Below, piece after piece: positions 2,609 through 57,959 of a stretch of DNA of 64,000 bases. The notes under the pieces were generated by a model. The model searched no databases and was not told the DNA's origin. It saw nothing but the letters and a program-made list of their open reading frames with translations. The number at the start of each line of letters is the position of its first letter. Position 1 is the stretch's first letter. Made by a program: the position numbers and the translations under genes. The DNA is from Planctomycetota bacterium (GTDB lineage Bacteria > Planctomycetota > OFTM77): contig JAVJTD010000267.1 of assembly GCA_040219065.1 (NCBI GenBank), positions 33 to 64,032 on the forward strand, read 5' to 3'.

Positions 2609-2620
2609 GAGGGCCGCGGC

Positions 2621-9137: not shown

Positions 9138-9256
9138 GGACACATCGCGAGGGTCGGAGCAGCGCCGGGTCCGCCGCCGGGGATTCTCTCAGAGGCGGAT
9201 GAGCCCCCCGGCGCTTCTCGGACGCTCATCCCCGCTGCGATTCATCTCGAGCGTCC

Positions 9257-9682: not shown

Positions 9683-9930
9683 TTGGCGTCCCCGCTCGTT
9701 CCTGGGTCCATCACCGCATTCATCGATTGCACCCAGGATTCAGACGCTTGGGAACGCGACCTCATCTCGATGTTCAAGACTCAGGCTTCGACCAATCGGC
9801 CGGGCGGACTGCTCATCCCGAACCGGCCTGAGACACACGATGTCACTGGCGCTACCAGCCAAGTTGCAGAATGCGGGCGCGATCACACTCCCTCGCCGCG
9901 GTGGGAAGGACAGGCAGCTCGAGCAGCCCC

Positions 9931-11175
9931 TCAACGATTCTTCCGGCGCGACTGCTTGGCCGACTTCCGCTTGCGCTTGTCCTTCGCCTTGTCCTTCTTG
10001 GCCTTCGCGGGCTTGGACTTTGGCCAGGCCTGGACTCTCTCTTGGGTGTTCAGGTCGTGGCCCTCCCCGGCACCGCCCATGAGCATCGACTTGGCCCTCC
10101 CGAACTGGCTCCTGTCCGAGAGCGCCTCTTCGAGCTCTTTCTCGATGCCTTCCACCCGCAGCGCCTGGAGGCAAGCCGGCGCTTGAGGAAGCCGAAGGTC
10201 TCGATCGAGGAACGTGTAGAAGTCGCGCAGCACCTCGAGGATCTCCGGGGCTTCCTCCGCCTCGACGCTGAGCTTGCGCGGGAAGATGTCGAAGAGGATC
10301 TCCTGGAGCTCTCTGGGCGTCAGCGTCGCGATGGTGGCCCCGCACGAGTGGGCCGCGAACTGCATGAGAGTGCGGCAATACCAGGATGGATTGAGCTTCC
10401 CCGCTCCTTCCCGAGAGTGGAGAAAGCGCTCCAGGAGGCGGTCTATCAGAACTTCGTGCGCATCGGGATCGATCCCCTCCTTGGCGAGCCGAATCAGGGG
10501 CAAGAGCAGATCATCGGCGGGAATCGCTCCGATCAGCGGAGCTCGAAGGCTGATCTCGACCTCCTCGGTGCAGTAAGTGTCGACCGCCCTTTCCACCACG
10601 ATGCCAGGCCCCCCTTTGAACGCGGCTTGCCATTGCTGCTCCCCGAAATTCAAGGAGCTCAGCGCCGAGCACAGCGTCTCCATCGCCTCGATGTGAGCCT
10701 CACTCAGGGCTTGCGTCTCGCCAGGACGGGGACAGACCCGAAGCACCGGATAGGCATCGTCTCCAGCGATGGGCCAGCCGTGGGCCTCGATCTCTTTCAG
10801 CACCTCCGCGGGCAGCTCGGCTGCCGGTGAAAAGGTCAAAGAGAGATGGCGAGGGAGCGGTAGCTTCTTTCCTTCCGGAGCAGCCGCGACATCTCCGAGG
10901 AGCTCGAGGAACTCCCAGGGTCGATCGAACTGGAGGAAGCCCTTCGTCCCTCCGGCCTGACCGATGAAAGACAGCGCAGCGCCGTTCATGCTGAACCGCC
11001 AGCAGGTGACCGCGACCGTCGCCTCCTCGGCCGGCAGGGCCTCCCAGCTCAGCTCGCGATGAAGCAACGCCGCGGCGCGAAACAGCTTCTCCACGACCTC
11101 GGGATCCAGCCCGTCCCGTAGATAGCTCCAGTCATCACACTTCGGCTTCTCGGCCCGCTCCCACCAGTGCGTCAT
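9931..11175 (-). CDS. hypothetical protein with basic C-terminal tail (paralog of 34243-35820)
   Basis: shares EI..HGW..AG..AYPVL, ELxEIxFxIxPRK and K..K.KRK.AKQSRxKNR with 34243-35820. Confidence 0.75.
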   Translation of the reverse strand: MTHWWERAEKPKCDDWSYLRDGLDPEVVEKLFRAAALLHRELSWEALPAEEATVAVTCWRFSMNGAALSFIGQAGGTKGFLQFDRPWEFLELLGDVAAAPEGKKLPLPRHLSLTFSPAAELPAEVLKEIEAHGWPIAGDDAYPVLRVCPRPGETQALSEAHIEAMETLCSALSSLNFGEQQWQAAFKGGPGIVVERAVDTYCTEEVEISLRAPLIGAIPADDLLLPLIRLAKEGIDPDAHEVLIDRLLERFLHSREGAGKLNPSWYCRTLMQFAAHSCGATIATLTPRELQEILFDIFPRKLSVEAEEAPEILEVLRDFYTFLDRDLRLPQAPACLQALRVEGIEKELEEALSDRSQFGRAKSMLMGGAGEGHDLNTQERVQAWPKSKPAKAKKDKAKDKRKRKSAKQSRRKNR

Positions 11176-11341
11176 GAGTCTCCTCAGCGTCAAAGCTGCG
11201 ATCCGCCTCGGCCCGATCCGAGGCCCGAGGGCACAGCGTAGTGCCCAGACCAAGCACCCTCAACGGGCCGGTGAGTTTCACTTCGGCGGCGCCGCGGGCT
11301 CCTCGTCCACCGCATCAACCACCGCCACCTGCGATACCCAT

Positions 11342-11463
11342 CCTCTGAGCTCCACGGCGCATTCTGCGGTTGGATCCGGGATCTTCCACCGCAGAGAACG
11401 CGGAGAGCGCAGAGGGGACCTCGACGGAGCGGGCCCGATTTCTTCCTCTGCGTTCCTCAGCGT
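11342..11463. repeat. inverted-repeat cluster A (ACCGCAGAG..GCGGAGAGCGCAGAGG family)
   Basis: reverse unit 11342-11374, forward unit 11385-11415, partial reverse unit 11445-11463. Confidence 0.85.
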
Positions 11464-11470
11464 GCTCGAC

Positions 11471-11516
11471 GCCGTCCTTCAGGCGGTGGACGCTGAAGAA
11501 GATGAGCAGGCCGACC
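11471..11516 (-). pseudogene. remnant of a GxxExxY gene 3' end
   Basis: ccgtccttcaggcggtggacgctgaagaagatgagcaggccgacc aligns to 12140-12184 of the intact gene (VGLLIFFSVHRLKDG vs VGLLINFNVQRLKDG). Confidence 0.75.
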
Positions 11517-11785
11517 CGCTCCGGTCTTCGAGGCTCAGTCCGATACGCCCAGCCAATTCTGGGCTCCTGACAGATCGAGCAGGTAAGCAGCCACGACCTC
11601 CCGCTCCACCCAGTCCGGCATCAGCGGCTGGAACTTGCTCAGTCGATAGCTCCCTGGTTGCCGGGCGCATTCGCGAACTACCTACTTCACTCGCCCACTC
11701 CCGCAGCCCACGGATCGTCGAAGACAGAGCCCTCTTGCCATCAGCGATCATGGTCATGGGGTCACTCTTCCCTCACTTCGTGGTA

Positions 11786-11859
11786 TCAGAGGACCTCGCG
11801 GAGCTCCTCGCGGGTCACTTCGCTGTCCCTCAGGACTTACCGAGCAAACCCGGGCCGAT
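11786..11859 (-). pseudogene. HicA toxin C-terminal remnant
   Basis: IGPGLLGK..RDSEVTREELREVL* (with a frameshift) matches the end of the hicA at 13855-14083. Confidence 0.75.
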
Positions 11860-11961
11860 CGGAAGCCTCGCGGGGAAGCAGGCGATCAACAGAGAACGGT
11901 TTCCCCCGAACGGAGGAACCGACGGTGCGATCAAGCCTCGAGCGCCGCTGCGACCCTCTTC

Positions 11962-12093
11962 CCTCTGCGTTTCTCGGCGCACTCAGCGGTTGGATCCGGG
12001 ATCTTCCACCGCAGAGATCGCGGAGAGCGCAGAGGCGACGGGCTCGAGCGACGCTCCTCTTCCTCTGCGATCCTCAGCGTCCTCTGCGGTTGG
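11962..12093. repeat. inverted-repeat cluster B, immediately 3' of the GxxExxY gene
   Basis: reverse unit 11962-11994, forward unit 12005-12035, reverse unit 12062-12093. Confidence 0.9.
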
Positions 12094-12111
12094 CATTCCC
12101 GGAACTTCTCA

Positions 12112-12489
12112 TCACAGGCCGTTCACCAGACGCTTGATACCGTCCTTGAGGCGCTGGACGTTGAAGTTGATGAGCAGGCCGACCTTCACGCCGCTGAGCT
12201 TGAGGTAGGTCAGGAGCTGAGCTTCGTGGATCGGGAGGAGCTCTCGGACCGCCTTCAGCTCGACGATGACGACGCCGTCGACAAGGAGATCCACGCGATA
12301 ACCGGCGTCGATCCTCACCCCCTCATAATGCACGGGCAGCACCTCCTGAACACCGACCGCATGTCCTCGCTGCCGCAGCTCGTGCACGAGACACGCCTCG
12401 TACGCCGACTCCAAGAGCCCCGGCCCCAATGCAGTGTGCACCTTCATCGCCGCATCCACGACGTCCCCACTCACCTCATTGACGTCCAT
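12112..12489 (-). CDS. GxxExxY protein (PD-(D/E)XK nuclease-like fold)
   Basis: LGPGLLESAYEACL, YRVDLLVDG.VIVELK, HEAQLLTYLKL, GLLINFN. Confidence 0.95.
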   Translation of the reverse strand: MDVNEVSGDVVDAAMKVHTALGPGLLESAYEACLVHELRQRGHAVGVQEVLPVHYEGVRIDAGYRVDLLVDGVVIVELKAVRELLPIHEAQLLTYLKLSGVKVGLLINFNVQRLKDGIKRLVNGL

Positions 12490-12526
12490 CCCCTCGCCCC
12501 TCGTTCCTGTCCAGCACTTCTCCTGT

Positions 12527-12586
12527 CAGCACTCTGCGGTTCGAGTCCGCCAGAATCAACCGCAGAGTACGCGGAGAGCGCAGAGG
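12527..12586. repeat. inverted-repeat cluster C, 5' of the GxxExxY gene
   Basis: ctctgcggtt at 12532-12541 and caaccgcagagtacgcggagagcgcagagg at 12557-12586. Confidence 0.85.
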
Positions 12587-12599
12587 CTCTGCCCGGAGC

Positions 12600-13514
12600 T
12601 CACGCTTCGTCATCGGTCCACGGCTCCCTCGCCCGGACATCGGCGAGCAGGCAGCGAACGCCCAAGTGATCAGCAGGATCGAGCCACAGTAGGCGCTCGA
12701 AAGCTCGCTCGGCCTCCTCCCATTGCTCCATTCGCCAAAGGCAGAGCCCATAACCGTGGAGGCAGCGGAGGAAGGGGCGATTCTCGATCACGGACCAGGG
12801 AAGCAGCCCGTCGAAGTCCTCTCCCAAGGACAGCTCGCCGATGCGGACGCCGACCTCGTAATGCGGCAGCGCCCATTGCGGCCAGCCACCGAAGTCGAGG
12901 TGCCCGAGATGCGCGTGCGCATCGAGGCAGCGGAGGTCGATCTCGAGCAAGTCCTGCAGGAGATCCTCGGCACCGGAGCGGTCGCCGGCGTCCCGGCGAT
13001 CGATCGACTCGCAGATCGGATCCGTGAGCGGATCCTCGAGATCTCGGCCGGGCAGCACCTGCTCCATCTCGAACATTTGCCGAGGCCCACGGGCAATGAT
13101 CGCCTGAGCCCAGTCCTCGAGCGGGCCGCCCTCTACACCCCAATACGCCTTCGCCGGATCCCACTCCCCCACCGGCGTCAACGTGAGCGGCGTCAACCCG
13201 AGCGCCGCAGCATCGACGCGAGTCGACACGACCTCGCCCGAGAGATACGGGTGGCTTTTGAACTGCCAATGCTTCTTCGCCTGCACGGTCAGGATCTGCC
13301 CCGGCACATACCGCCCGAGGCTTCGAGCCCGAAGCGTGATCCCCTCGCCGCCATCCACGAACCGACACCGGGCCGCCTTCTCCCGAAGCCGAACGAGGAC
13401 CAGATCGATCGGCTTCGACAGGTCGAGCCCCTCGTCCCTCGCCTCGGGGTTCTCGTCGAAGGGCTCCGAGTACTTTCCGCGCAGTCCACCGTAGAACTCG
13501 TACTGTTTTCGCAT
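12600..13514 (-). pseudogene. C-terminal part of a TPR-repeat protein (paralog of 18748-19968) fused to an unrelated short N-terminus
   Basis: from DLSKPIDLVLVR onward it is colinear with 18748-19968 (FEMEQV.PG, DLRCLDAH.HLG, NRPFLR.LHG); the first ~20 aa MRKQYEFYGGLRGKY resemble a BrnA-type antitoxin start. Confidence 0.7.
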
Positions 13515-13572
13515 ACATGCTCACGGTCAATCGACCGCCTCCAGTTGGACACTCGTTTTCGGCTCCGCGCCC

Positions 13573-13788
13573 TCAGGCCAGGCGTAGCCGGCGGCCCTTC
13601 GGTTCTGGAATGGCTCGACCTTGGTCCCGAGCAGTCTCGATCCAGAGCCCGATCGCCTCCTGGCAATTGGCCAGCGCTGCCCCTGGCGAGTCCCCGTGGG
13701 CCGCGCAGCCTGCCAGCTCGGGCAGTTCAGCGACGAAGGCCTGATCGTCGTCGCTCCAGTAGATGAGGATTTCGTACTTGTACGACAT
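13573..13788 (-). CDS. HicB-family antitoxin
   Basis: YEILIYWSDDDQAFVAELPELAGCAAHG...AIGLWIETA...IPEP. Confidence 0.9.
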   Translation of the reverse strand: MSYKYEILIYWSDDDQAFVAELPELAGCAAHGDSPGAALANCQEAIGLWIETARDQGRAIPEPKGRRLRLA

Positions 13789-13854
13789 CTCTCGGCTGGT
13801 CCCCTGGTGACGCGAAGGTGGTGGACAACGCCACACTCACCTCCTTTCGTCTGA

Positions 13855-14083
13855 TCACAGGACCTCTCGGAGCTCCTCCCGGGTGAGTTCGCAGTCTCGT
13901 AGGATCTTGCCGAGCAATCCCGGGCCGAGCGTTTCTTTCGCATGAACGGGAACGATGGTCGTTCGCCCGTCGCGAGGCCTGAGAAAGTTGTGGCTCCCGC
14001 GAACACGCGCGACCTCGAACCCCCAGGCGCTCGAGCGCTGCGACCAACCGCTTGCCCGTGATTTGTGGAAGCTTGTCGCTCAT
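13855..14083 (-). pseudogene. HicA-family toxin, +1 frameshift
   Basis: KLPQITGKRLVAALERLG|FEVARVRGSHNFL...VPVH...LGPGLLGKILRDC; one extra base in the C5 run at 14020-14024. Confidence 0.85.
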
Positions 14084-14292
14084 GCCACTCGGATGCGCTG
14101 GACTCCGACGAACTCGAGCGGCTCCGGTGTGGGTCCCTCGACTTCGAGGTACAGGAGGATGGCCTCTCTCACCCTCTTCATGAGCTCATCGAGGGACCTC
14201 GCCTGCGTATGGCAACCCTTCAGGGCGGGTACGGTCGCGACGAAGTAGCCTTCCGAGTCTTGCTCGATGATCACATCGAACTCATTGTTCAT
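14080..14292 (-). CDS. HicB-family antitoxin
   Basis: VIIEQDSEGYFVATVPALKGCHTQARSLDELM..VREAI; overlaps the hicA start. Confidence 0.92.
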   Translation of the reverse strand: MNNEFDVIIEQDSEGYFVATVPALKGCHTQARSLDELMKRVREAILLYLEVEGPTPEPLEFVGVQRIRVA

Positions 14293-14475
14293 GGTTTGTC
14301 ATCCTCAGGAGTCCGGGGGTCTCGTGGTGAACGTCATTCTCCATCGGGCGGGCCTCTCGGGGAAGGAGGCACTCGGCGGAGTGCGGTCGACCCGAACGTA
14401 CGGAACGACGGCAGACCAGAACCCGCGCGAGCCGACTTGGCCGCCGAGCCGTGGCGCCAAGACCGCGGCGCCCAG

Positions 14476-14685
14476 CTAGGCGACTTGGATCGTTTGTATG
14501 CCGACGAGCTCCGACTCTAGCTTCGGGTCCCCGTCTTCGAACAACATCGAGATGACCTCGCGGAAGTTCTTCTCAAGCTCGTCCAGAGTCGTTCCCTGGC
14601 TGTGCGCTCCTGGCGATCCAGGAACCGACCCGATGAACAGCTCCGTCTCCGGGTCTCGTTCGACCAATACGTTGGGAGTCTTCAT
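14476..14685 (-). CDS. HicB-family antitoxin
   Basis: VERDPETELFIGSVPGSPGAHSQGTTLDELEKN.REVI..LESELVGIQTI; GTG start. Confidence 0.85.
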   Translation of the reverse strand: MKTPNVLVERDPETELFIGSVPGSPGAHSQGTTLDELEKNFREVISMLFEDGDPKLESELVGIQTIQVA

Positions 14686-14780
14686 CGATCACTCCTTCGC
14701 CAGACTTCGGCTGCACCCAGGTTACGGTCGACCACCGGATTCGCAACACGCTGAGTTCCTCCGGCATCGCGCCCCACCTC

Positions 14781-14854
14781 CCTCTGCGCTCCTCGGCGCC
14801 CTCTGGGGTTGGATTGTGGATCTTCCACCGCAGAGATCGCGGAGAGCGCAGAGG
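14781..14854. repeat. inverted-repeat cluster D
   Basis: reverse unit 14781-14813, forward unit tccaccgcagagatcgcggagagcgcagagg 14824-14854 (identical to 12005-12035). Confidence 0.9.
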
Positions 14855-14877
14855 GGGACGGGCGTGCGGCTCATTCC

Positions 14878-15052
14878 TCGCGACCAACGACAGCCCCTGC
14901 CCGACCACCGTCACCTCCACCGGCAGCTTCAGGCCCTCACTGATCGCATCGAGCAAAGCCCAGAGCTGCTCATCCTCGCCGTACGCATCGGTGAGGATCT
15001 CCTCGAGAAGAGCATCGATACGGTCAGGCGCAGGTCGCCTCGGCGTGGACAT
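14878..15052 (-). pseudogene. N-terminal fragment of the TPR-repeat protein
   Basis: MSTPRRPAPDRIDALLEEILTDAYGEDEQLWALLDAISEGLKLPVEVTVVGQGLSLVA aligns to the N-terminus of 18748-19968; similarity stops just before repeat cluster D. Confidence 0.75.
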
Positions 15053-15489
15053 GATCTCGCTCCGGATGAGGAGGACTTCGATGGAACGGGCCGAGCTCAT
15101 CGCCGGCCGCGCGCATCTTACCAGGGAGCCGATCGACAACGGTCCAGCCGCTCCCTCCGAGCAGAAGCCCCTCGCAAGGCCAAACGCTCGCTTGAGAGCC
15201 TCTCTCCGTTCATTCCCACCGCCGCTCGCCGAGATTGCCCGCAACGCGTGGGGCGTGGATGCACCCCGTTCCGAGGGAGCAAGCAATGCGCCCCGAGTCG
15301 TCCCGACGCGAGCATTGATTCCGACGGGCGACAGTTGACACTCCCACGAGCGGGGCGTACTCTGCCCTCTCAGCAGTGGAGGGTCAATGAGAGTGAGAAC
15401 GACATTCAAACTGGAAGATGACGGAGCGAGCTCCGTTGCGATCGCCAGCACCTGCCCCCGCACCGCCGGTCCAGCGAATGATCGGAAGC

Positions 15490-15920
15490 ACGTTGGCCAT
15501 GAGCACGATCGCGACCTCGCCCCCGTCCAGCTGGGTAAGACTTGCCAGATCCTGTCGCAGAGGATCTCGAACGCCGGGAGCGATCGGCCCTGGCAATGGG
15601 TCTTCCCGGAGACCCGGCTTTACAGGCACGAGCCGAACGGCAAGCGGCACCGCCATCACTTGCACGAGACCGTGCTCCAGCGCGCGGTGCGAAGCGCCGC
15701 GAAGGCAGCCGGCCTGAGCCAGCGGGTCACGTGTCACACGTTCCCCCACTCCTTCGCCACGCATCTCCTGGAAGACGGCTACGACATCCGGACGGTCCAA
15801 GAGCTGCTCGGTCACCGAGACGTCTCGACGACGATGATCTACACCCACGTCCTGAACCGCGGCCCCGGTGGAGTCAGGAGCCCGGCCGATGTGATGCCGC
15901 CGTTCGAGGAGACGTCATGA
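15490..15920 (+). pseudogene. intI: integron integrase (IntI), C-terminal remnant
   Basis: WQWVFP...[13 protein letters not shown] (IntI patch), [48 protein letters not shown]; N-terminal half absent; catalytic HxxR has R replaced by P. Confidence 0.9.
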
Positions 15921-16049
15921 GCAGGGATGCTGCCCGCTCCACCACTCCCGCTTATCCAGGTCCGCCTAATCCAGCAGGCCGCACCCGCTATCCATCCCCA
16001 AACACAGGCTGTCGATCACCTTCCGCCCCTCCCGAAGCGACCGACGGAC

Positions 16050-16123
16050 CTGTTATGCAGCCGCGCCACCGTGAATTAGGCTGCAGGGAGATATTAGGCA
16101 GGTCTGTGGAATTGTAATTAGAC
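16050..16123 (+). mobile_element. putative attI region
   Basis: AT-richer stretch ending in a/TTAGAC (16117-16123), complementary to the R'' GTCTAAC of the first cassette. Confidence 0.5.
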
Positions 16124-16144
16124 CGAATCCGAGGCCACCCTCAG

Positions 16145-16801
16145 TTGCGCGATTACCTCCCAGACAGCGTCCTGGAACGGATACGAGACCGGTACCTAGC
16201 CGGCGTTGCGGATGCGGAGGCGAAATTCCAGTTCAACGCAGGCGACGAAGACTCGTTGACCGGCGCGCTAGGCTCCGCCATCACTACGCCCGAGCCTGTG
16301 AGCCACATCGTGGACGGCGTAAGGTACACGTGGCAAATATACTACCGAAAGCTTAGGGGTCGGGGCTCGGGTGCACCAGAGAAGAGTCTGGGCGCCGACG
16401 GAATCTTTCAGATTGAGATTCACGATCAGAAAGGTAGGGTCCTGAAGCGAAAAGGCCTACCCTTTCAAGCGAAGAAGGGGTGGACAGTTCGAGACCGAAG
16501 CTTGGTGCATCAGGCTCGAAAAATGACGGATTCCGCTGGAGATGGTTTGGTCGTCGACTATTCCGCAAGAGGCTTCACGTGCTGCTCGGCTGAATCGGTC
16601 GTTGATGTGGATGGTCAAAAGAAAGACCTTATCGATTCATGGCGCATAGGCAGCCTCGGCCAAGCAATTGGAAATGAATTTCTTAATTGCGAAATTGGGG
16701 TCGATGGATTGTTCTTCGACCCGGATTCCGAGATGTTTCACATCGAACCCCCAGAACACGCTATTGGTACGTCCGTCGAAGTTGAACGATTCCCTGGCTA
16801 A
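16145..16801 (+). CDS. integron cassette 1: hypothetical protein with PD-(D/E)XK-like E..LGAD...FQAK motif
   Basis: lower GC than its neighbours; DEDSLTGAL, PEKSLGADGIF, GLPFQAKK; followed by attC. Confidence 0.7.
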   Translation: MRDYLPDSVLERIRDRYLAGVADAEAKFQFNAGDEDSLTGALGSAITTPEPVSHIVDGVRYTWQIYYRKLRGRGSGAPEKSLGADGIFQIEIHDQKGRVLKRKGLPFQAKKGWTVRDRSLVHQARKMTDSAGDGLVVDYSARGFTCCSAESVVDVDGQKKDLIDSWRIGSLGQAIGNEFLNCEIGVDGLFFDPDSEMFHIEPPEHAIGTSVEVERFPG

Positions 16802-16807
16802 CAGTTG

Positions 16808-16879
16808 GTCTAACAATCGGCTGGAGCTGACAAACATTCCGCAACGCGAAATGTTCGCAGCTCAGCCCCGGCGTTGGGC
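16808..16879 (+). mobile_element. attC site 1
   Basis: R'' GTCTAAC 16808-16814, R' GTTGGGC 16873-16879, inner GGCTGGAGCTG/CAGCTCAGCC stem with an extrahelical G, aacatt/aatgtt arm. Confidence 0.88.
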
Positions 16880-16902
16880 CGACAAGGAGCATGGAGTAAA
16901 GC

Positions 16903-17160
16903 GTGCCTGAGATCTCTCGGTTTCTGGGGATAGTGATCGCGATGTACTACAACGATCACGCCCCGCCGCACTTTCACGCGAGGTACGGGGCCTTCGAAAT
17001 CACCGTCAGCATCGCGGACGGCGTCGTGGAGGGTCGGTTCCCCCGGCGGGCTCTGAATCTGGTGCTGGAGTGGTACAGTCTCCATCAGGCTGAGCTCCTT
17101 GAAGATTGGGACCTGGCCCGCGAGCGGAAGCCCTTGCATCGCATCGACCCACTGGAGTAA
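16903..17160 (+). CDS. DUF4160 family protein (putative TA component), cassette 2
   Basis: MPEISRFLGIVIAMYYNDHAPPHFHARYG...LVLEW..LHQAELLEDW. Confidence 0.93.
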   Translation: MPEISRFLGIVIAMYYNDHAPPHFHARYGAFEITVSIADGVVEGRFPRRALNLVLEWYSLHQAELLEDWDLARERKPLHRIDPLE

Positions 17161-17165
17161 TTCGC

Positions 17166-17444
17166 ATGATCCCCAAGCTCGAGTCAGCTGAGTACGTAAC
17201 CGGACACGCCATTCGCCTCAGGTTCGCGGACGGAACGGAAGGGGTCGTCGACCTGAAGGACGAACTCTGGGGCGAGGTCTTCGAGCCCCTCAAGGATCCG
17301 GCAACGTTTCGGACGTTTCGTCTTGATTCCGAGCTCAATACGGTGACCTGGCCCTCAGGGGCAGACTTGGCCCCCGAGTTCCTGTACGAGAAGGCGGCGG
17401 CCCAACAAGCCGACGCCTCGGACCGGCCTTCGGCCGGCCGCTGA
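17166..17444 (+). CDS. DUF2442 family protein (partner of DUF4160), cassette 2
   Basis: IRLRFADGTEGVVDL..L.GEVFEPLKDP..F...TVTWPSGADLAPEFLYE. Confidence 0.92.
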   Translation: MIPKLESAEYVTGHAIRLRFADGTEGVVDLKDELWGEVFEPLKDPATFRTFRLDSELNTVTWPSGADLAPEFLYEKAAAQQADASDRPSAGR

Positions 17445-17461
17445 TCGGCAAGGCGTTAACG
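17400..17461 (+). mobile_element. attC site 2 (degenerate)
   Basis: R'' GCCCAAC (exact complement of the GTTGGGC opening this cassette), central ccggccttcggccgg hairpin, R' GTTAACG 17455-17461. Confidence 0.75.
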
Positions 17462-17470
17462 GAGACGAGC

Positions 17471-17740
17471 ATGAATGAATAGAAGTTCTACATCTGGAAG
17501 CTCGCTGATTTCCTGGCGCAACACGAGATGCGCATTTCGGGCGAGGAGCTGGCTGCGCACTTGAACCGGAATGAGTTCCTGACTGACGCCGGCACTGAGT
17601 TCCAGGGAGGGCGCGGCACCTGCAAGCTGATCCAGGCAACGTGGCGCTGGCTGCACGACGACCTCGGCCTCGAGGTTGAGGCCGCCAAGGTTGCCGCGGC
17701 CTATGTCAAGCAGGATGGCAAGTACGCCTACGAGGTCTGA
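17471..17740 (+). pseudogene. integron cassette 3: small hypothetical protein with a nonsense codon
   Basis: GGAG RBS, then ATG AAT GAA TAG AAG TTC... in frame with MRISGEELAAHLNRN; TAG at 17480-17482. Confidence 0.65.
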
Positions 17741-17932
17741 CAGCAGCCCGTTGACTCCCCGACTTTGCCGCGTTGCTGAAGCGACTGGGCGGCGCCACGC
17801 ACTCCAGCATTTCGTGCTGTCCCACCGCTCACCTCCGGAGCGTTTCCAATCACTCCGAGCGGTCCAGCGTCGATGGCTGTGTCTGCGCGCGTCGTGCGGT
17901 CATCCTGGCCCTGCGGCCTTCCCTACCCTCTT

Positions 17933-17964
17933 CCTCTGCGTTTTTCTGCGTCCTCTGCGGTTGG
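17933..17964. repeat. repeat unit E (reverse orientation)
   Basis: cctctgcgtttttctgcgtcctctgcggttgg. Confidence 0.8.
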
Positions 17965-18017
17965 GTTTCTTACGTCTTCCACGCCGCCCCACGTTCATCG
18001 CCCTTTGGGCTCGACGT

Positions 18018-18042
18018 GCGGGCAGGATGCCCGCGTTCCCAG
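18018..18042. repeat. REP-like palindrome of a second family
   Basis: gcgggcaggatgcccgcgttcccag: GCGGGCA-gga-TGCCCGC hairpin. Confidence 0.55.
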
Positions 18043-18049
18043 TGCTTGG

Positions 18050-18570
18050 TCACTGCAACCTCACCCTCGCGCCCTGCCGGATCTTCTCCAGCAACCTCGC
18101 TCGCACCTCCTCCACCAGCGCGTCGACTTTGGCTTCCGTGGTGAGCTCCCGGTTCCTTAGACCCAGATCCAGTCGCACGATCAAGGGCTTCTCGCCTTCG
18201 CTCAGGTGGTGGTCCAGGATCTCGTCAGCTTGGTCTTCTGCTCTCGTCAGGGCGAGGGTGAAGGTGTCGCGCAAGCTCGCCATGGTCGGGGCGATGGACA
18301 CTTCGTCGGTGGGGGTGGCTGCTTCGGTCAGGGGTCTGAGGACTTGGCGAGCTTGGTCGGCGGTCAGGGTGCTGATGCCTTCCCTTCTCTTCGCTTGACC
18401 CTCGCGGGGGCGGCTTCGAGCTCTTCTTCTTGGCGCTGGAGGAGGCTGGCTCGCTCGGCGCGGTAGGCGGCTCGGATGTCCGTGACGGGTTGATCCAGCT
18501 CGCCGATCTCTCGCCAGGGGCGCTCGGTTCTTAGGTGCTCTTCGATGCGGACGGCGGCGGCTTCGATGTT
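18050..18570 (-). pseudogene. frameshifted C-terminal fragment resembling the BREX P-loop ATPase BrxC
   Basis: RPWREI...IRAAYRAER..RVKRREG | LTADQARQVLRPL...LGLRNRELTTEAKVDALVEEVRARLLEKIRQGARVRLQ*; family assigned from memory. Confidence 0.5.
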
Positions 18571-18660
18571 CGTGGCTTTACGTGGCCTCGACGTATTCGG
18601 TTGCCCGCTCACGCCAGCACATCCGTCGCTGCGATCTGGTCGCGCCTTGGCTGAACGCGA

Positions 18661-18731
18661 CCTGGCGTTCCTCGCCCTCTGCTGTCGGAAGCCGCCATCG
18701 TCGATCACCCAGAACGCCGAGAGCGCGGAGG
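18661..18731. repeat. degenerate repeat cluster F
   Basis: cagaacgccgagagcgcggagg (18710-18731) preceded by a degenerate reverse unit. Confidence 0.6.
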
Positions 18732-18747
18732 CGTCCGCCTTTCGGGC

Positions 18748-19968
18748 TCAGGGCTTGGTCCAGGCGGTTCGCGTTTGGACTTCGGCCAGGGAGAAGCGGT
18801 TGCTCATGAAGTCGTCAGGGTCCAGCCAGAGCAGGCGCTCGAAGACTCGTTCGGCTTCTTCCCAACGCTCCAGTCGCCAGAGGCAGGTTCCGCAGCCGTG
18901 GAGGCTGCGGAGGAAGGGTCGGTTCTGAGTGTACTCCCAAGGAAGCAGTCCATCGAAGTCCGCTCCCAGGGACAGCTCGGCGATGCGGATGCCGACCTCG
19001 TAGTGCGGCAATGCCCAGTCCGCCCGGAACCGGTAGTCGAGGTGACCGAGGTGCACATGGGCATCCAGACAACGAAGGTCCTCCTCGAGTAGGCCTTGAA
19101 GGATCTCTCCGGCCCCGGCGAGGTCTCCGGACTCTCGGAGCTCGGTGGACTCGGAGATGGGGTCGCCAAACGGATCCGTGAAGTTGCGGCCGGGCACGAC
19201 TTGCTCCATCTCGAACACCTGTCGAGACCCGCGGGCCATGATCGCCTCGGCCCAGCCTTCGAGCGCCTCGCCTCTTCCGAGCCACTCGCCCTCGGCGGGA
19301 TTCCACTCACCGACCGGCGACAATTCTAGCGGCGTCAGCCCGAGTGCGGCAGCGTCGATGCGGGCCGACGCGACCTCGCCCGACAAGTACAGACGCTCAT
19401 CTGACTCCATCTGGCTCTTGGGCCGGACGGTGAGAACATGCCCCGGTACGAAGCGGCTGAGCCCGTCCGCTCGCAGCGTGATGTCTCGATCATCGCCGAG
19501 CAAGCGGCAATGTGCTGCCTGGGAAGAGAACCGCACGAGGACGAGGTCGATCATTTGCGAGAGGTCGAGCTCGCGCCTGACTCTTCGAAGCTCGCCTTCG
19601 GGCCGGCTCAGTTGCGCCGCCCGCCCTTCGTCGAGAGGATCGAGCTCCAGCCAATGACGATAGGCATTGATGAGCTCATGACCGGGCTCGTCGGGTGTCA
19701 CGCGGATCGCCGCGAGGCTGAACTGATGCTCGTGTCCATCGTTGTCCACGCATCGAGCCGTGATCCCGCTCAGGAGATCGCCATCGGTGTCGATCGCGAC
19801 GAGCGAGACCGGGTGGTCCACGACCATCACGTCCATCGGTAGCTTCATCGCTTCCCGGATCGCCTCGAGCAAGGCCCAAACCTCCTCTTGCTCCTCGCTG
19901 GCGCCGGCGAGGAGCTCGTCGAGGACAGCGTTGAGACGATCGAGCGATGGTTGCTCTCGCGTGGGCAT
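18748..19968 (-). CDS. TPR-repeat protein with acidic N-terminal domain
   Basis: intact 406-aa ORF; C-terminal TPR-like helices (DLRCLDAHVHLG, CLWRLERWEEAERVFERLLWLDP). Confidence 0.8.
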   Translation of the reverse strand: MPTREQPSLDRLNAVLDELLAGASEEQEEVWALLEAIREAMKLPMDVMVVDHPVSLVAIDTDGDLLSGITARCVDNDGHEHQFSLAAIRVTPDEPGHELINAYRHWLELDPLDEGRAAQLSRPEGELRRVRRELDLSQMIDLVLVRFSSQAAHCRLLGDDRDITLRADGLSRFVPGHVLTVRPKSQMESDERLYLSGEVASARIDAAALGLTPLELSPVGEWNPAEGEWLGRGEALEGWAEAIMARGSRQVFEMEQVVPGRNFTDPFGDPISESTELRESGDLAGAGEILQGLLEEDLRCLDAHVHLGHLDYRFRADWALPHYEVGIRIAELSLGADFDGLLPWEYTQNRPFLRSLHGCGTCLWRLERWEEAERVFERLLWLDPDDFMSNRFSLAEVQTRTAWTKP

Positions 19969-20089
19969 GAGTAGCTCCGGTAGAGTGAGCTCGTGACCGA
20001 ACGGTCAGCCTTCAACACGGCAGCAGTCTACTGGCGCGGCCCGCCGCGGGACATGGAGTGATGAGGAACAGTCCGTTCGATCTCCAACT

Positions 20090-20320
20090 CGACCTCGAGC
20101 AGCCCCGACATCACGAGCCATTTGAGCAGCGTGTAGGCCACTTGCTCCTCGACCTCCCGGAAGAAGTCATCCTTGGACCGCTCCCTCTTCTTCTCTCCGC
20201 CCCCCGGACACCCGACCAGCCGCCCTTCAGTCGCCTCGGACGACTCCGCATCCTGCTCCCGCACCGACAACCGATATTGCGCATCGGCGGCGGCCCGAAG
20301 AGCGGTCAGCAACCTCCTGC
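20090..20320 (-). pseudogene. fragment resembling the N-terminus of BREX PglX methyltransferase
   Basis: RRLLTALRAAADAQYRLSV...FFREVEEQVAYTLLKWLV...LLE; a related copy (KDTFRETEKQAANTLL) lies at about 22860-22950. Confidence 0.45.
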
Positions 20321-20570
20321 ATTGGAGTGCCCAAGTCGAGCGAGCCGAAGACCGAGTTTTCTGTTGAGGGCATTCACGAGCGAGCTTGGGCCGGGCCACC
20401 ATTGCGACGACGGCGCACTCCGAGCGGCCCCTTGCTCAGCGCTTCCTGGCTCGATCATCGGCGATGTCGAGGAAGCACTTTCCCGCTCACCACCTCCCCC
20501 CGTTTCGGTCGCGCGGGCTCTGGTTGGATCTGCGCCCTTCAGCGTCCTCTGAGGTGCCCGAACCTCCCTC

Positions 20571-22608
20571 TCAACGATCGGGATCGATCCGCTGCCAGCG
20601 CTCGCTCGCGCCGTCATTGGGATCGAAGGTCGGCTCGTTGGTCAGGACGTATTCGCCCTGGCCATTGCTGTAGACGTAGCTGTACAGGCTTGGCAGCTTG
20701 ACCGAGGAGCCGTCGACGTCTTGGAAGTCGTCGACATCGCGAATGTAGTCGTTGAAGGATTCTTGCAGACGGTCGCTCGAGGCTTGCTGCTCCTTCACGC
20801 CGCTCTGGTAGATCTCCCAGGCTTCTTGCTGGCCTCTGCGATTGATCTCCCCGATCTTGGTGAGCGCGTCGAGCTGCTGCTGGTTGATCTTGTTTCGGAG
20901 GTGCATGAGCACCGCGGAATAGCGGGGGTTCGGCTGCAGCGAGAGGCTGATCGCCTCGAGGATGGGGCGAGCCGGATCGAGCTGTCCGGCCGGAGCGCGC
21001 ACGCCTCTTGGATCCGTCATGATCCAGTGCACCGTGTTCACCATCGGCATGTTCGGCATCTGCTGAGCGCTGCGCTGCACGCTCCCGAGGACCCAGACGT
21101 CCTCCTCGAACGCCCGTCCCGCCTCCTCGTAGGCAATCCGAACCCGCTCGGCGACGATCGACATCGTCGTCTGGGCGTTGGCCCCCATCTGCCGGAGCTG
21201 CGCGTCGTTCCGCTGAGCCTGCTCGAGGACCGGCTCCATCACGGTGCGCATCCGTTGCTCCACATCGGGGAGCGGCGTTCGGTCGATCACGCGCACCGAT
21301 CGCGCTTGCGGACGATGGGCCGGGAGGACGATCTGAGTGACGTAGTCACTGGCGCTCTCCGGCAGAGGCATGTGCACGATACCGTCTGTCGTGACCGTCC
21401 CCGGCTTCGGACGACCGCCGGTCGCGCCCATCCGTGCGCCGATCTCATAGACGTCGGAGTCCTCGTAGAAGCCACCGGGATAGACGGCCAGCTCTCGCCC
21501 GTCACCGGAGCGCACCCGAAGGCTCATGTGGACGAAGTCTCGAAACGCTCGTGGATTCCATTGCGGACCGCCCTCGACCTCCCAGCCTTTGGGCTTGAGC
21601 AGCGTGTGGGACTCCATGCCGTTGACGCCGGGATCGCGCAGCGTGACCTTCTCGAAGACCATCCTCGCCGGAAGGGCCACCGCGCTCTCTCGACGGGCGT
21701 TCTGGCTCCCATCCGAGCGATCGTCGCCCGCCCGCTCGCGATCCGGCGCGGCCGTGACCTTCTCGCGGCGGAGCTGCAGGGGTGTCCACCCCTCGACCGG
21801 GTTGCCGACGGTCCCTTTCATGCGGCCGTCCGAGGACATCTCGAGCCGCAGCGTCTGCGCACCAAGGGACTCGGACTGGCCTTGCGTCGTCGCCAAGACC
21901 TCTCGCGCACTCAGCTCGACCTTCGCGCCGCTCGCCGTGCGTCCCGTGAAGCGACCGGTCACCTCGATCGGGATCGTCTGGCCGGGGCCCACCGGGTAGT
22001 CGACCGTCGATCGGAGCTCAGCCGTGAGCTCGCCCTGAGGAGAGCTCACGATGTCGATGGTGACCGGGAAGGTGAGCGGAGTCCCGTCGTCGGCCTCGTC
22101 TTTGCCGGTTCCCTTCCAGGTCCCGGTGAAGGTGCCGCTGGGCTCGGCTTTCGGGGATCGGCCCTGGGCACTGGCGTCCGGAAACGGCCTCGAGGGCCGA
22201 TCGACCGACTCGATGGAGTAGGACGAGCTCCCGGTCACGAAGGTCCACTTCTCACCCTCGGACCGCGAGGCGGTGAATGCGAACTTCTTGTCTCCGGCCC
22301 GAAACTCTCCCGCAAAGGAGCTCTCGCCCGAGGTCGTGCCCGTGTAAGGGAAGACTTGGTCGCCCAACCGGATCTGGCCCTGGACGCGACCGGAAGTGCC
22401 CTCGAGCCTCTGGAGGCTCACGATCAAGCCGTCCCCCTCGAAGTAGCGGGTCGAGATCTTCTTGGGAGGATCGAGTGGGTTGTCCTGAGCAGACGTGCGA
22501 TCGACCGCGAAGCCGAAGGCGACGGCGAGCACCAGGAGGCTGACCCGAAGGAGTCCTCCGCAGGCGAGCGGATCGTCACTGCGACGACGTCCATGTCCTG
22601 TAGGCATG
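20571..22608 (-). CDS. large secreted hypothetical protein
   Basis: hydrophobic signal/anchor LLRVSLLVLAVAFGFA, beta-rich N-half, SHTLLKPKGWEVEGG, C-terminal FNDYIRDV...Y.YVYSNGQGEY; start uncertain. Confidence 0.75.
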
Positions 22609-22976
22609 TTCAAGTCTCCTGGCTCGGTGGGGGCCATGCATCGCGAGGACGCGGTCCTGACATGGGAAGCGGCCAACGACGACCGGCTTTCGAAGCGGCA
22701 ACGAGCAGGAGCGCTGCCTTCCAGGGAAAGGTGGCCGGCAGACTAAGCCAGCGGTCGAGGGCTGTCAAACGAGCGATCGGAGCGGAATTCGCCCTCCCCA
22801 TGCGAGCTCACGAAAGGCCGCGAGGCAAATCGCAGCCACTGGACTGGGCGGCTCAACCGCCTCGAGCAGCGTGTTGGCCGCCTGCTTCTCGGTCTCCCGG
22901 AAGGTGTCCTTCCGGGACCGCTCGCCTTTCGTCTCCCCGCCCCCACCTGAGCCCGCTGCACGTAGAAGACCTTGGC

Positions 22977-23126
22977 TCAGAGCGCCTGCTGGAGGGCTTG
23001 GTGAACAAGCGTTGTCTTGCCGATCCGTCGTCGACCGGTGATGCGTGCGAAGAACCACCGCCCTCGCTCGAGTATCTCCCGGAGCTGAGACAGCTCCAAC
23101 GAGCGCCCGTAGAACCCCCAGGCCAT
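22977..23126 (-). pseudogene. truncated P-loop ATPase N-terminus
   Basis: MAWGFYGRSLELSQLREILERGRWFFARITGRRRIGKTTLVHQALQQAL*: FxGR..EL plus Walker A GRRRIGKTT, then a stop. Confidence 0.75.
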
Positions 23127-23245
23127 GCCGGCCTCCGCTTATTTAAAACGTTTTAAGTTACGAGGTCGTCATGCCGAAATCGTTTGCCTGTTTCAAGTTC
23201 CAGGCACACGAGTGACGTCCGGGGTCGCGAACGGCGCCCGGATCT

Positions 23246-23328
23246 TCCACCGCAGAGATCGCGGAGAGCGCAGAGGAGACCACGACGGATTTCTTCCTCT
23301 GCGCTCCTCGGCGTCTTCCGCGGTTGGA
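23246..23328. repeat. inverted-repeat cluster G
   Basis: forward unit 23246-23276 (identical to 12005-12035), reverse unit 23296-23328. Confidence 0.9.
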
Positions 23329-24129
23329 CTCCCGGGAAGACCCGAGCACAGCCCGTTCACCGACTAATGGAGGAGCCAGAAGAAGCCATCGACTCGACGC
23401 CGGTCCCCGCAGGCTCACCATCTCCGGTGGGCGTGTTCGTGCAAACAGGAGATCGTTCGTGGGATTGAAGATCCACGTCGCGCCGCACGCCCGGACGGCC
23501 GCTCGTGACCTGATGAACGACGGTGCTGTCGGTATCGACGACATCGGCGAGAACCTCTACGACGTCATCCGCGACGAGATCCTCGAGGAGCTACCGAGTC
23601 GAGACGGCGATCGGGCCCGTATTCGTCATTCGGGAACGCTCCGTCTGGACGGCCGCGGCGGCAAAGAGTGCGATCCTGCCGCAGCCTTTACGATCTTGAC
23701 TTGGTCCACGGCTGTGGATCATGGCACGATTCTCTCACGCTTCGCTGTTCTCAGGCGCGATGGGCTGTGCCTTTCCGAGTATTCGTCGGTTCGGGCCGTT
23801 CAGGTCGGGCTGGCCTCCGCCGAACTGTTTGCGGTGGGCGCCGCTCTTCCGCTTCTGTGCGCCGTCTTGATTCCGCTCGCCGCGCTCATGGGGGTCGTCT
23901 CAGCCAGTTCGATCTAGTTTCTTGCGCTCTTGGGTTTGGTGTCCTCCAAGGCAGGCGGCGCTCCGATAGCTGCCGAAGCCTCTCCCGTCACCCTTTGGGG
24001 CACCCTGGAAACGGCGTCGACCGCTGCGGTGGGTGCGCGCCTCGGTGTGGCGAATTGATTTCATTGGCGACGAAATCTGGGCGCTCAACACGCCGTGTAT
24101 GACATGGAAGAGAAGGAGGTGTCCTCGCC

Positions 24130-25476
24130 GTGAGAGGACGGTTGTTCAAGTACTGGAATCGTATCCGTTCAGGCTTCTGGTTCATTCCGGCGACTATGGC
24201 CGGCGCGGCCGTTGCGTTGGCATTCCTGAGCGTGGCCGTGGACAAACCGCTGACGGAGTGGCTGGCGCTCAGCTTGGGTTTGAACTTCACTGGTGGAGCG
24301 GAAGGGGCAAGCGCCGTTCTGGGCATCATCGCCGGGTCGATGATCACGATCGCCGGTGTGGTCTTCTCAATGACGCTGGTCGCGCTCTCGTTGGCCTCGT
24401 CTCAACTGGGACCCCGTCTGCTGCGCACTTTCATGCGCGATTCCACGACACAGGTGGTCCTCGGCACGTTCATCGCCACTTTTTTGTACTGCTTGCTCGT
24501 CCTCCGCACGATCCGCCGCGCAGAGGAGGTCTCATTCGTTCCGCACCTGTCGGTCACCCTCGGCGTTCTACTCGCAGTCGCGAGCGTGGGAGTGTTGATC
24601 TACTTCATCCATCACGTGTCCGTCTCCATCCAGGCCAACGAGATCGCCGCGCGGATAGGCCAGCAATTGCTGGGAAGGCTCGAGACTCTCTTCCCCGACC
24701 AAATCGGAGCCGGGGCGCCAAAGGTCCAGACGGAGCCACACGACTCGAGCTTCCTGGAGGCCTTTGACCGGGACTCCTCGGCAGTCAGAGCGGACGGAGA
24801 TGGCTACCTCCAGTTCATCGACGGTGCGGCGTTGCTGGCGCTGGCAGTGGAGGAGGATATCGTGGTTCGACTGGAACGAAAGCCTGGAAACTTCGTCGTG
24901 GCCAATTGCCCTCTGGCGCTGATCTGGCCAAAGAGCCGAGCGACCGACAAGATCACGGATCAAGTCCGCTCCCTATTCGTCCTGGGTAACCAACGGACTT
25001 CCGACCAGGACATCGAGTTCGGAGTGAACCAATTGGTAGAGATTGCGGTCCGAGCCCTCTCCCCTGGGCTGAACGACCCGTTCACGGCGATGATGTGCGT
25101 GGACCATTTGGGATCCGTTCTGTGTCGTTTGGCAGCACGAGATACGCCGTCACCTCATCGCTATGACCACCAGAACCAGCTTCGGGTGATTGCACCCGCC
25201 AACACGTTCCCCGAGGTCATGGACGCAGCCTTCAATCAGGTGCGGCAATACTCTCGCACCAGCGTCGCGGTGACTCTTCGCTTGCTGGAGACGATCGCCG
25301 TGGTCGCGGGATTCGCTCGTCGGCCAGGAGACCTCGCCGCTCTCCGACAGCACGCTGAAATGATCGGGCGAGGGGCTATGGACGCGCTTTCTGAAAGGGA
25401 GGATCGCCGCGCGGTGGAAGAGCGCTGCCAGGCGGCCATCCAGTCGTGTAGCGAAGCGGCAGCTTCTTGCCGCTGA
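24130..25476 (+). CDS. DUF2254 family membrane protein
   Basis: FWFIP, AGSMITIAGVVFSMT..ASSQLGPRLL, EIAVRALSPGLNDPFTA. Confidence 0.92.
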   Translation: MRGRLFKYWNRIRSGFWFIPATMAGAAVALAFLSVAVDKPLTEWLALSLGLNFTGGAEGASAVLGIIAGSMITIAGVVFSMTLVALSLASSQLGPRLLRTFMRDSTTQVVLGTFIATFLYCLLVLRTIRRAEEVSFVPHLSVTLGVLLAVASVGVLIYFIHHVSVSIQANEIAARIGQQLLGRLETLFPDQIGAGAPKVQTEPHDSSFLEAFDRDSSAVRADGDGYLQFIDGAALLALAVEEDIVVRLERKPGNFVVANCPLALIWPKSRATDKITDQVRSLFVLGNQRTSDQDIEFGVNQLVEIAVRALSPGLNDPFTAMMCVDHLGSVLCRLAARDTPSPHRYDHQNQLRVIAPANTFPEVMDAAFNQVRQYSRTSVAVTLRLLETIAVVAGFARRPGDLAALRQHAEMIGRGAMDALSEREDRRAVEERCQAAIQSCSEAAASCR

Positions 25477-53172: not shown

Positions 53173-53179
53173 GCGTCTC

Positions 53180-55251: not shown

Positions 55252-55276
55252 GTCGCCTCCGGGTCGGGTACCGAGC

Positions 55277-57951: not shown

Positions 57952-57959
57952 GTGTCGGC

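Follow-up and report, generated by a model that had tools for sequence, protein, structure and literature searches.

Iterated inverted repeats accompany genes of the predicted GxxExxY nuclease family in a planctomycetotal island and at loci in many other phyla

In a 64,000-nucleotide stretch from the 9.09-Mb assembly of a Planctomycetota bacterium (582 contigs; contig C15, positions 33-64032, hereafter the window), a small intact gene of the GxxExxY family lies among about 15 units of a ~31-nt repeat. The units occur in both orientations between positions 11342 and 23328 and were found by sequence match, by repeat families and by nhmmer. An earlier reading of this DNA, made from its letters alone (the sequence-only reading), had likened the arrangement to repetitive extragenic palindromic (REP) sequences and their REP-associated tyrosine transposase (RAYT), with the GxxExxY protein in the place of the transposase. 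The question raised by the locus is whether repeat and gene belong together and, if they do, what the protein might do to the repeat. Sequence comparison supports the view that the two belong together, in this genome and beyond it, and points to a little-described DNA module that may be selfish or self-regulating.

The repeat family itself is genuine. Each unit consists of three CGCAGAG-like heptads, and the consensus of 12 clear units brought into one orientation, TCCA(A)CC-GCAGAG-nn-CGCnGAG-nn-CGCAGAGG, can be read as three CRCNRAG heptads with a period of ~9 nt after an ACC-like prefix. The 31-nt sequence TCCACCGCAGAGAWCGCGGAGAGCGCAGAGG was matched at 11385, 12005, 12556 (with 2 mismatches), 14824 and 23246, with 0.00 chance matches expected from 100 shuffles; diverged reverse-complement units start at 11342, 11445, 11962, 12062, 14781, 17933 and 23296. 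All seven clusters of unit and diverged reverse complement described in the sequence-only reading were recovered, and the forward copies at 12005, 14824 and 23246 are indeed identical. Chance and assembly artefact were both rejected as explanations, given that no match is expected and that units are also present in a second genome of the genus and in independent metagenome contigs. When an nhmmer profile made from the 12 units was run on the whole assembly, the window's contig gave 14 matches, every one between 11.3 and 23.4 kb, and about 11 more at E<1 were found on contigs C19, C30, C153, C391 and C495. The earlier statement that no units lie outside 11.3-23.4 kb thus holds for the window and fails for the genome.

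The protein encoded among these units scores 149.1 bits against TIGR04256 (cut-off 35) and 144.5 bits against PF13366 (PDDEXK_3; cut-off 22). Its eponymous motif reads G24-L-L-E27-S-A-Y30. Residues E27, D67, E77, K79 and Q91 are invariant among 54 sequences, and we take them to be the PD-(D/E)XK catalytic motif. The ESM Atlas holds a confident model (predicted local distance difference test, 0.94), and the neighbours listed there belong to PF13366 only. No relative was found in the PDB by sequence search at E<=1, and a Pfam scan beyond PF13366 returned only a weak Cas4 echo (E 0.18).

How general is the association? Close relatives of the window protein number at least 8000, all at E<=0.001; the best among those listed are 70-80% identical and come from bins labelled Pirellulales, Binatia, Brocadiia, Chloroflexi and Gammaproteobacteria. 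With the window protein as query we collected 80 loci from contigs representing one genome per species and at least 14 named phyla; both flanks are available in 76. By eye, nearly all of the genes are preceded by a purine-rich arm of three heptads and followed by its reverse complement, and the letters of the heptad vary from locus to locus (CACAGAG, CGCAGAG, CACGAAG, CGCGAAG, CACAAAG). A fixed pattern of three CRCNRAG heptads, 1-5 nt apart, identified a forward arm in the 200 nt upstream of the gene at 58 of 80 loci; in the 200 nt downstream, 58 of 76 loci have a reverse arm. Both arms were found at this distance in 45 of the 76 loci and a unit on at least one flank in 70, against a background, more than 500 nt from the gene, of 50 units in 429,554 nt (0.023 per 200 nt). 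Few loci have an arm in the opposite orientation (10/80 upstream, 12/76 downstream), and some of the 6 loci missed by the pattern hold variants outside it, such as two-heptad arms or CACGAAT. A check proposed with the sequence-only reading, namely a search for the repeat beside GxxExxY genes elsewhere, came out in favour of the pairing.

The geometry of these loci is also regular. Where both arms adjoin the gene closely (40 loci), Watson-Crick pairs account for 1040 of the 1170 positions aligned between arms; the median distance is 15 nt from the end of the forward arm to the start codon and 7.5 nt from the stop codon to the reverse arm. The modules fit tightly between neighbouring genes. More distant family members (110-133 bits) have arms as well, in 6 of 8 cases (score >=12), made of other heptads such as GGGAAAA, CAGGAA and CACAGAT. 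In the openly accessible articles that were searched we found none linking GxxExxY or PF13366 to flanking repeats; the three papers found to name the family touch on it in passing, as in a passage of PMC8934634.

One related complete genome (locus L153, G077:C1:459600-465000) has a DDE transposase gene of 556 aa between the GxxExxY gene and the distal arm, from which it appears that an insertion sequence (IS) landed within the module. The same module adjoins a gene for a type I restriction R subunit.

Arms and proteins were then compared on a quick maximum-likelihood tree of 79 proteins, in which changes of label were counted against 200 shuffles. Heptad position 5 (A or G) changes 6 times on the tree, against a shuffled mean of 22.7 and minimum of 17; position 2 changes 13 times (mean 21.0) and position 4 17 times (mean 27.1). 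Host phylum clusters weakly: over 73 rows it changes 37 times, against 48.4. A clade with CACGAAG heptads (Shimodaira-Hasegawa-like approximate likelihood-ratio test, 98) covers 7 phyla and G+C contents of 0.45-0.66. The variant tracks the protein clade and not the phylum; gene and arms thus spread and diverge as one, for the most part irrespective of host and base composition. Physical linkage would by itself yield co-transfer of gene and arms; it would leave unexplained that both arms are kept intact and matched while the proteins diverge by ~40%.

The units and GxxExxY genes of the window, with F for forward and R for reverse-complement units, are the following:
11342-11374, minus strand: R unit ending ...CTGCGGTTGGA; pairs with the F unit at 11385 over a 10-nt loop
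11385-11415, plus strand: F unit of three CGCAGAG-like heptads, 0 mismatches
11445-11477, minus strand: R unit with truncated outer end (nhmmer E 5e-4); fold of the pair not above shuffles
11465-11518, minus strand: second GxxExxY gene, a remnant covering residues 102-119, 67% identical (tblastn E 0.002)
11962-11994, minus strand: R unit (repeat families and nhmmer)
12005-12035, plus strand: F unit identical to the 14824 and 23246 copies (sequence match)
12062-12094, minus strand: R unit, 17 nt past the GxxExxY stop codon (repeat families and nhmmer)
12112-12489, minus strand: intact GxxExxY gene, 125 aa, PF13366/TIGR04256 (profiles)
12527-12586, plus strand: R-like stub (12527-12541) and F unit (12556-12586, 2 mismatches), upstream of the GxxExxY start
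14781-14854, strandless: R unit (14781-14813), 10-nt loop and F unit (14824-14854); the stablest hairpin, z -5.4
17933-17965, minus strand: solitary R unit (repeat families and nhmmer)
18701-18731, plus strand: degenerate F unit past the stop codon of a full-length tetratricopeptide repeat (TPR) paralogue, 64% identity
20529-20555, minus strand: weak, doubtful R-like unit, 85% over 27 nt (nhmmer E 1.3)
23246-23328, strandless: F unit (23246-23276), 19-nt spacer and R unit (23296-23328); gene-less arm-spacer-arm hairpin, z -4.3

Units are thus found on both sides of the intact gene, as the sequence-only reading had described. The remnant at 11465-11518 shares 85% DNA identity with 12132-12184 and lies against the unit at 11445. 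When unit pairs were folded as single-stranded DNA, 6 of 7 were more stable than their shuffles (z -3.3 to -5.4, with 0 or 1 of 200 shuffles as good), which bears out the expectation that the units can make long hairpins; the seventh pair, which has a truncated arm, folds no better than shuffles (z -0.2).

A separate repeat family abuts the weak unit at 20529. It is a non-coding element of ~203 bp (window 20323-20525). Nearly complete copies (>=180 nt; median identity 79%) number at least 224, spread over 166 contigs of the genome and often in tandem, and the family is far more abundant than the heptad units.

Units without a gene are numerous. The whole genome has only two GxxExxY genes, the second of which (on C67, 43% identical) abuts a large CACGGAG/CACGGGG hairpin array, so that both genes adjoin hairpins of their own heptad variant. 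Against these 2 genes stand 204 matches to the pattern, with 12 in a reversed control; related genomes have up to 243 pattern matches and 0-10 PF13366 matches each. Within the genome the variant CGCAGAG is found in the window and on five other contigs, and CACGGAG at ~17 loci laid out as arm array, ~90-nt palindromic centre and arm array. CACCAAG occurs as 8-nt tandem arrays at many contig ends; such CACCAAGR arrays were seen at the ends of C21, C46, C163, C274, C288, C314, C323, C365, C463, C573 and others, and probably break the assembly. One of them closely follows a four-helix-bundle gene on C531 (279-590).

We interpret the arms, as the best explanation of these sequences, as the termini of a small module that would comprise a CRCNRAG triple-heptad arm, the 125-aa GxxExxY gene and a reverse-complement arm. 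The gene-less hairpin, as at 23246 and 12005, would be best explained as its shortened form, arm - 20 to 30 nt - arm. It is somewhat short of an even chance, in our judgement, that the nuclease reads its own iterated arms and that cutting and repair copy, homogenise and occasionally rearrange the modules. The predicted nuclease, probably a dimer, would recognise its own arms by their repeated heptads, whether these are present as duplex DNA or extruded into a hairpin or cruciform, and would cut there. Repair might then copy or homogenise the module by homing or gene conversion and yield deletion derivatives, and neighbouring DNA would be rearranged as a by-product. In transcripts the paired arms may form a long stem like that of the intervening sequences (IVSs) of 23S rRNA, with the insert perhaps tolerated or processed.

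Several observations weigh against this mechanism. That the protein binds, cuts or moves the arms is something we infer from sequence. PF13366 members scoring below 85 bits have arms in 0 of 6 cases. The window's own gene is without a canonical upstream arm; in a related metagenome strain, position 12490 is joined to 17928 via 28 nt and the canonical arm-gene layout is restored, the unit that is solitary in the window at 17933 lying there 28 nt upstream of the GxxExxY start, in the canonical arm position. The gene also seems to stay in place. At an intergenic site in Acidobacteria (L009), between a thiolase-like gene and the next gene, the GxxExxY gene is present in 14 instances by BLAST continuity, 9 of which were read, and its region is 76-81% identical in continuous alignments. 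It is as conserved as the housekeeping flanks and therefore looks like a case of long vertical residence rather than active hopping. Neither an empty site nor a target-site duplication was found at this and a second Acidobacteria site (L011), where relatives are filled or flanks too diverged.

The same two sites also carry shortened forms. At the first, hairpins of the form arm - ~26 nt - arm, of the CACGGAG variant, occur in 5 instances, an arm remnant beside another palindromic insert in 4 and a different iterated element in 1. The spacers of these hairpins open with ATG and a few codons, which would fit internal deletion of a gene-bearing module. At the second site, two genomes have the gene between its arms, a third has two arms of another variant separated by 56 nt and a fourth has an unrelated open reading frame (ORF). 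Two CACGGAG hairpin elements of the window's genome are lacking at the orthologous sites of a congener, against which no target duplication can be read because the flanks are only ~75% identical. In G033, two seemingly identical copies belong to a 2.9-kb region that occurs twice, at 86% identity, which is uninformative. Long residence and low gene copy number resemble RAYT/REPIN (REP doublet forming hairpins) more closely than a hopping IS, and the signs of vertical keeping are mixed: the module stays long at one site, yet the protein tree mixes phyla.

Beside the CRCNRAG arm remnants of the Acidobacteria site (L181, L185-L188) lie GATCGGG-type and GTAATTG-type elements and a ~150-nt palindrome. 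With several unrelated elements at the same spot, it can be regarded as an insertion hot spot.

Counts over genomes cut both ways. Among 61 genomes of the same phylum, a PF13366 gene is present in 14 of the 17 with at least 20 units and in 11 of the 44 with fewer (Fisher p 8e-5, Spearman 0.52), p-values that overstate the evidence because these genomes are kin to one another. Unit counts are related to the four-helix-bundle family PF05635 too (p 0.024, rho 0.41) and weakly to Y1_Tnp (p 0.064, rho 0.26). Three unit-rich genomes (G013, G014, G098) have no detected GxxExxY gene, and 11 genomes with the gene have fewer than 20 units. Such exceptions would suit ordinary REP-like hairpins, spread by a Y1 or unknown enzyme or kept by the host, which serve as recombination hot spots where GxxExxY genes land or hitch-hike. 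We consider this improbable. Y1_Tnp is found in 15 of the 17 unit-rich genomes, one intergenic hot spot collects several unrelated iterated elements and one module contains an IS, all as expected from it; Y1_Tnp is, however, common anyway (27 of the 44 unit-poor genomes), and none of the three Y1_Tnp (PF01797) matches of the window's genome (C55, C189, C212) is on a contig with units. The fixed orientation of the gene between its arms (58 against 10 loci upstream) and a heptad variant that follows the protein clade across phyla also argue against it. The units follow GxxExxY better than the Y1 transposase, contrary to the refuting case of co-occurrence with a RAYT that the sequence-only reading had named.

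Four-helix-bundle genes (PF05635, '23S rRNA IVS protein'), which are small, multi-copy and present in the same genomes, had been intended as a negative control. In the same-phylum genomes a CRCNRAG unit lies within 250 nt of such a gene in only 1 of 28 loci. These genes, which lie outside rRNA (L106-L133), nevertheless have inverted arms of their own, above the 95th percentile of a control with mismatched flanks in 15 of the 23 loci with both flanks. Most of these arms have an internal period of 7-8 nt and 3-4 tandem sub-repeats, which differ by locus (GTAGGTT, CCCTTTT, GTCAGC, GTTCCG and others). A small ORF in iterated inverted arms is therefore common to two unrelated families, of which the window's repeat represents the GxxExxY version. 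Since the four-helix-bundle proteins are not nucleases, the arms need not be a nuclease substrate, and this adds to the points against cutting by GxxExxY. A precedent is the 23S IVS of Coxiella (PMC4990558): RNase III cuts its stem, a terminal inverted repeat of 28 bp, and directly upstream of its four-helix-bundle ORF stand three tandem GACAGAT heptamers, their number varying by strain; older proposals cited there hold such elements to be mobile and the ORF to be needed for mobility. From the four-helix-bundle arms and the RNase III-cut Coxiella stem it follows that the arms may act at the RNA level, a further point of the same kind.

The main alternative, possible if rather doubtful, is that the arms act in the transcript and not in DNA. 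They would pair into a long stem enclosing the ORF, which RNase III would cut or which would hide a purine-rich ribosome-binding stretch. It is equally doubtful that, as the rest of this explanation has it, the insert is excised or throttled, the nuclease has an unrelated role in defence or repair and the module spreads by ordinary recombination or transfer. Such a role is consistent with the stem and tandem heptamers of the Coxiella IVS (PMC4990558), with the 15 of 23 four-helix-bundle loci whose arms, each with its own sub-repeat, suggest that structure matters over sequence, with the short distances of the purine-rich arm from the start codon and of the reverse arm from the stop codon, and with the tight packing of modules between genes. 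It is less easily reconciled with the arm mismatches: in the sense strand of the 40 loci (1170 positions), 50 are G-U-compatible and 41 are A-C, so that there is no wobble bias and selection on pairing in one-strand RNA is not visible. A plain stem would need no three tandem heptads kept across phyla, nor does this explanation account for gene-less hairpins dispersed to many loci. Rfam has no family for the arms: no match at E<=1 was found in window 9000-26000, hence no rRNA there, and a scan of 13 of the 80 loci gave no rRNA and a single match, to Acido-Lenti-1, in L009. That match (RF01687, 45.7 bits; 2603-2648, minus strand) lies 1.4 kb upstream of the module and is unrelated to the arms.

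Action on DNA and action in RNA are not mutually exclusive, and the boldest version merges them. GxxExxY would then be the homodimeric nuclease of tiny selfish modules that cuts its own arms and is copied by repair into other hairpins of the same variant; in transcripts the arms would also form a stem of the RNase III type, which would render the insert harmless, and the four-helix-bundle 'IVS proteins' would belong to a sister class. We offer this as a tentative scheme that is probably not right in full.

The surroundings of the module are a mosaic of gene fragments:
12600-13514, minus strand: 3' part of a TPR gene, whose 5' part appears to resume at 14881 (repeat families)
14080-14685, minus strand: two HicB-like antitoxin ORFs, 14080-14292 and 14476-14685 (ORF annotation)
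15507-15920, plus strand: C-terminal half of an integron integrase (TIGR02249 positions 185-314, 167 bits, cut-off 265)
18364-18708, minus strand: BrxC-like C-terminal fragment (E 8.3e-6, positions 997-1064 of 1173)
18748-19968, minus strand: full-length TPR paralogue (repeat families)
20028-20402, minus strand: PglX-like N-terminal fragment (E 1.2e-4, positions 16-106 of 1319)
22977-23126, minus strand: ATPase_2/AAA N-terminal fragment, 49 aa (annotation)

The TPR gene is split by ~1.45 kb, the right edge of which is formed by the hairpin 14781-14854 and lies 27 nt from the unit 14824-14854; the degenerate unit at 18701-18731 parallels the one at 12556-12586, each adjoining one TPR copy. Of the gene fragments that the sequence-only reading had placed beside the clusters, the TPR break, the BrxC-like piece and the ATPase N-terminus were found again, for its hicA tip two HicB-like ORFs were all that was seen, and its integron array was reduced to half an intI gene. 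The region is best explained as a decaying variable island that holds an intact module, a gene remnant, about a dozen loose arms and pieces of intI, HicB-like, bacteriophage exclusion (BREX), TPR and ATPase genes. From the mosaic of this island we infer that defence and toxin-antitoxin cassettes may be shuffled.

The intI fragment invites another interpretation, namely that a chromosomal integron decayed here and left the units as attC sites and the region as a cassette array. The fragment scores below its cut-off because half of the protein is missing, and small cassette-like ORFs are at hand (HicB-like, DUF4160/DUF2442). The core sites of attC are RYYYAAC ... GTTRRRY, and 5 of the 6 full R units end in GTTGGRY, which by eye fits the latter. 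The opposite end, TTCCACC, misfits RYYYAAC, and arms on C19 and in other phyla end in GGTGAA, GGTTCA or GGTGCA. Further intI fragments (C376, C159) and an integrase-like ORF (C185) are on contigs without units. No complete integron integrase was found in the window's genome or in the congener, where all matches are below the cut-off; a scan for short inverted repeats in 9-26 kb gave no second palindrome family fit for attC. Loci of other phyla have one arm on either side of a single gene, itself set among housekeeping genes, instead of a palindrome 3' of each cassette. With core ends that misfit, no linkage to intI elsewhere and one arm on each side of the gene, the integron interpretation was rejected, and we regard it as very improbable. 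Separately, a word, GCCTAATT, seen in two inverted-repeat arms was dropped, with only 7 occurrences in the genome.

Some further features of the window were recorded. An overlapping DUF4160/DUF2442 pair (16903-17444, plus strand) lies between the intI remnant and the unit at 17933. The best intI matches are C-terminal fragments: window 15507-15920, G000 C376:4127-4513 and C159:3679-4050, and G001 C11 and C141. A 21-nt period (GAGGAGCTC...AACGAGGAGCT) at 38630-38870 and 43885-44080 is probably heptad-repeat coding in two paralogous genes. From 53000 to 64000 G+C climbs from ~0.62-0.65 to 0.70-0.77, and there are tandem 36/51-nt repeats at 61819-62315 and GC-rich triplet repeats at 63830-63973.

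If arms were cut and repaired, rearrangements might be expected to end at them. The congener has the same pieces in a different order, on two contigs, and window 11996-12586 is 96% identical to it with both ends on units. When the ends of alignments of at least 150 nt were compared, 14 of 46 fell within 35 nt of a unit against 3.1 expected (10 of 39 distinct ends). Contigs with further piece orders were present in four public metagenome runs (DNA runs sharing <=0.18 of the window's words), and 8 of 26 joint ends were near a unit against 2.3 expected. Breakpoints in related strains are thus enriched at the repeats, as the sequence-only reading had predicted they should be; this excess is supportive, not decisive, because repeats may draw alignment ends or short-sided joints technically, and this too counts on the contrary side of the account.

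GxxExxY is a very common family, and the orientation-specific pairing with arms provides it with a concrete, testable candidate substrate. The hairpin repeats scattered over several phyla, the origin of 23S IVSs and the four-helix-bundle 'IVS proteins' are linked through the same pairing. Should the nuclease act on the arms, it would represent a new class of enzyme, for homing or the maintenance of repeats, and possibly a source of compact sequence- or structure-specific nucleases. For annotation, arms account for many spurious ORFs and contig breaks in metagenome bins. Were the combined scheme true, the module would be a bacterial counterpart of a homing endonuclease plus a self-removing intron, and one explanation would be shared by 23S IVSs, GxxExxY genes and a large set of REP-like hairpins.

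Which known systems does the module resemble? Integron attC sites are likewise imperfect palindromes edging small cassettes, in the window next to an intI remnant; they differ in their core sites, in their association with intI and in their geometry round the gene. Homing endonuclease genes in introns and inteins share the logic only, a nuclease nested in a tolerated element and spread, as proposed here, by cut and repair. PD-(D/E)XK homing enzymes exist; in contrast to the modules described here, which are known from sequence alone, homing endonuclease genes have a splicing element and a defined empty target. With IS elements and miniature inverted-repeat transposable elements the module has in common terminal inverted repeats round one gene and short gene-less derivatives whose spacer may keep the gene ends, whereas it has no known transposase family, no target-site duplication that we saw, iterated arms and a long stay at its site.

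The closest likenesses are to the IVS-like and REP/RAYT-like kinds, and the module would resemble both. Like the 23S IVSs of Coxiella and Leptospira, it has a small ORF between complementary termini that form a long stem, and it shares tandem heptamers, three per arm here and GACAGAT x3 at the 5' arm in Coxiella (PMC4990558). It differs in its predicted nuclease ORF, in its position in intergenic DNA of protein-coding regions, in the dispersal of gene-less copies and in the lack of rRNA in the scanned stretches. With REP/REPIN-RAYT systems it shares extragenic palindromes that are short, number tens to hundreds and frequently form inverted pairs, and a low-copy gene flanked by repeats in a module that seems to stay long at one site. 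In these respects the REP/RAYT analogy of the sequence-only reading is supported; the part that does not is the enzyme, here a 125-aa predicted PD-(D/E)XK nuclease (PF13366) and not an HUH Y1 transposase (PF01797). Three tandem heptads take the place of the single short palindrome with conserved tetranucleotide described for REP sequences, and the gene lies exactly between an arm and its complement, in fixed orientation, with protein and arms found in many phyla.

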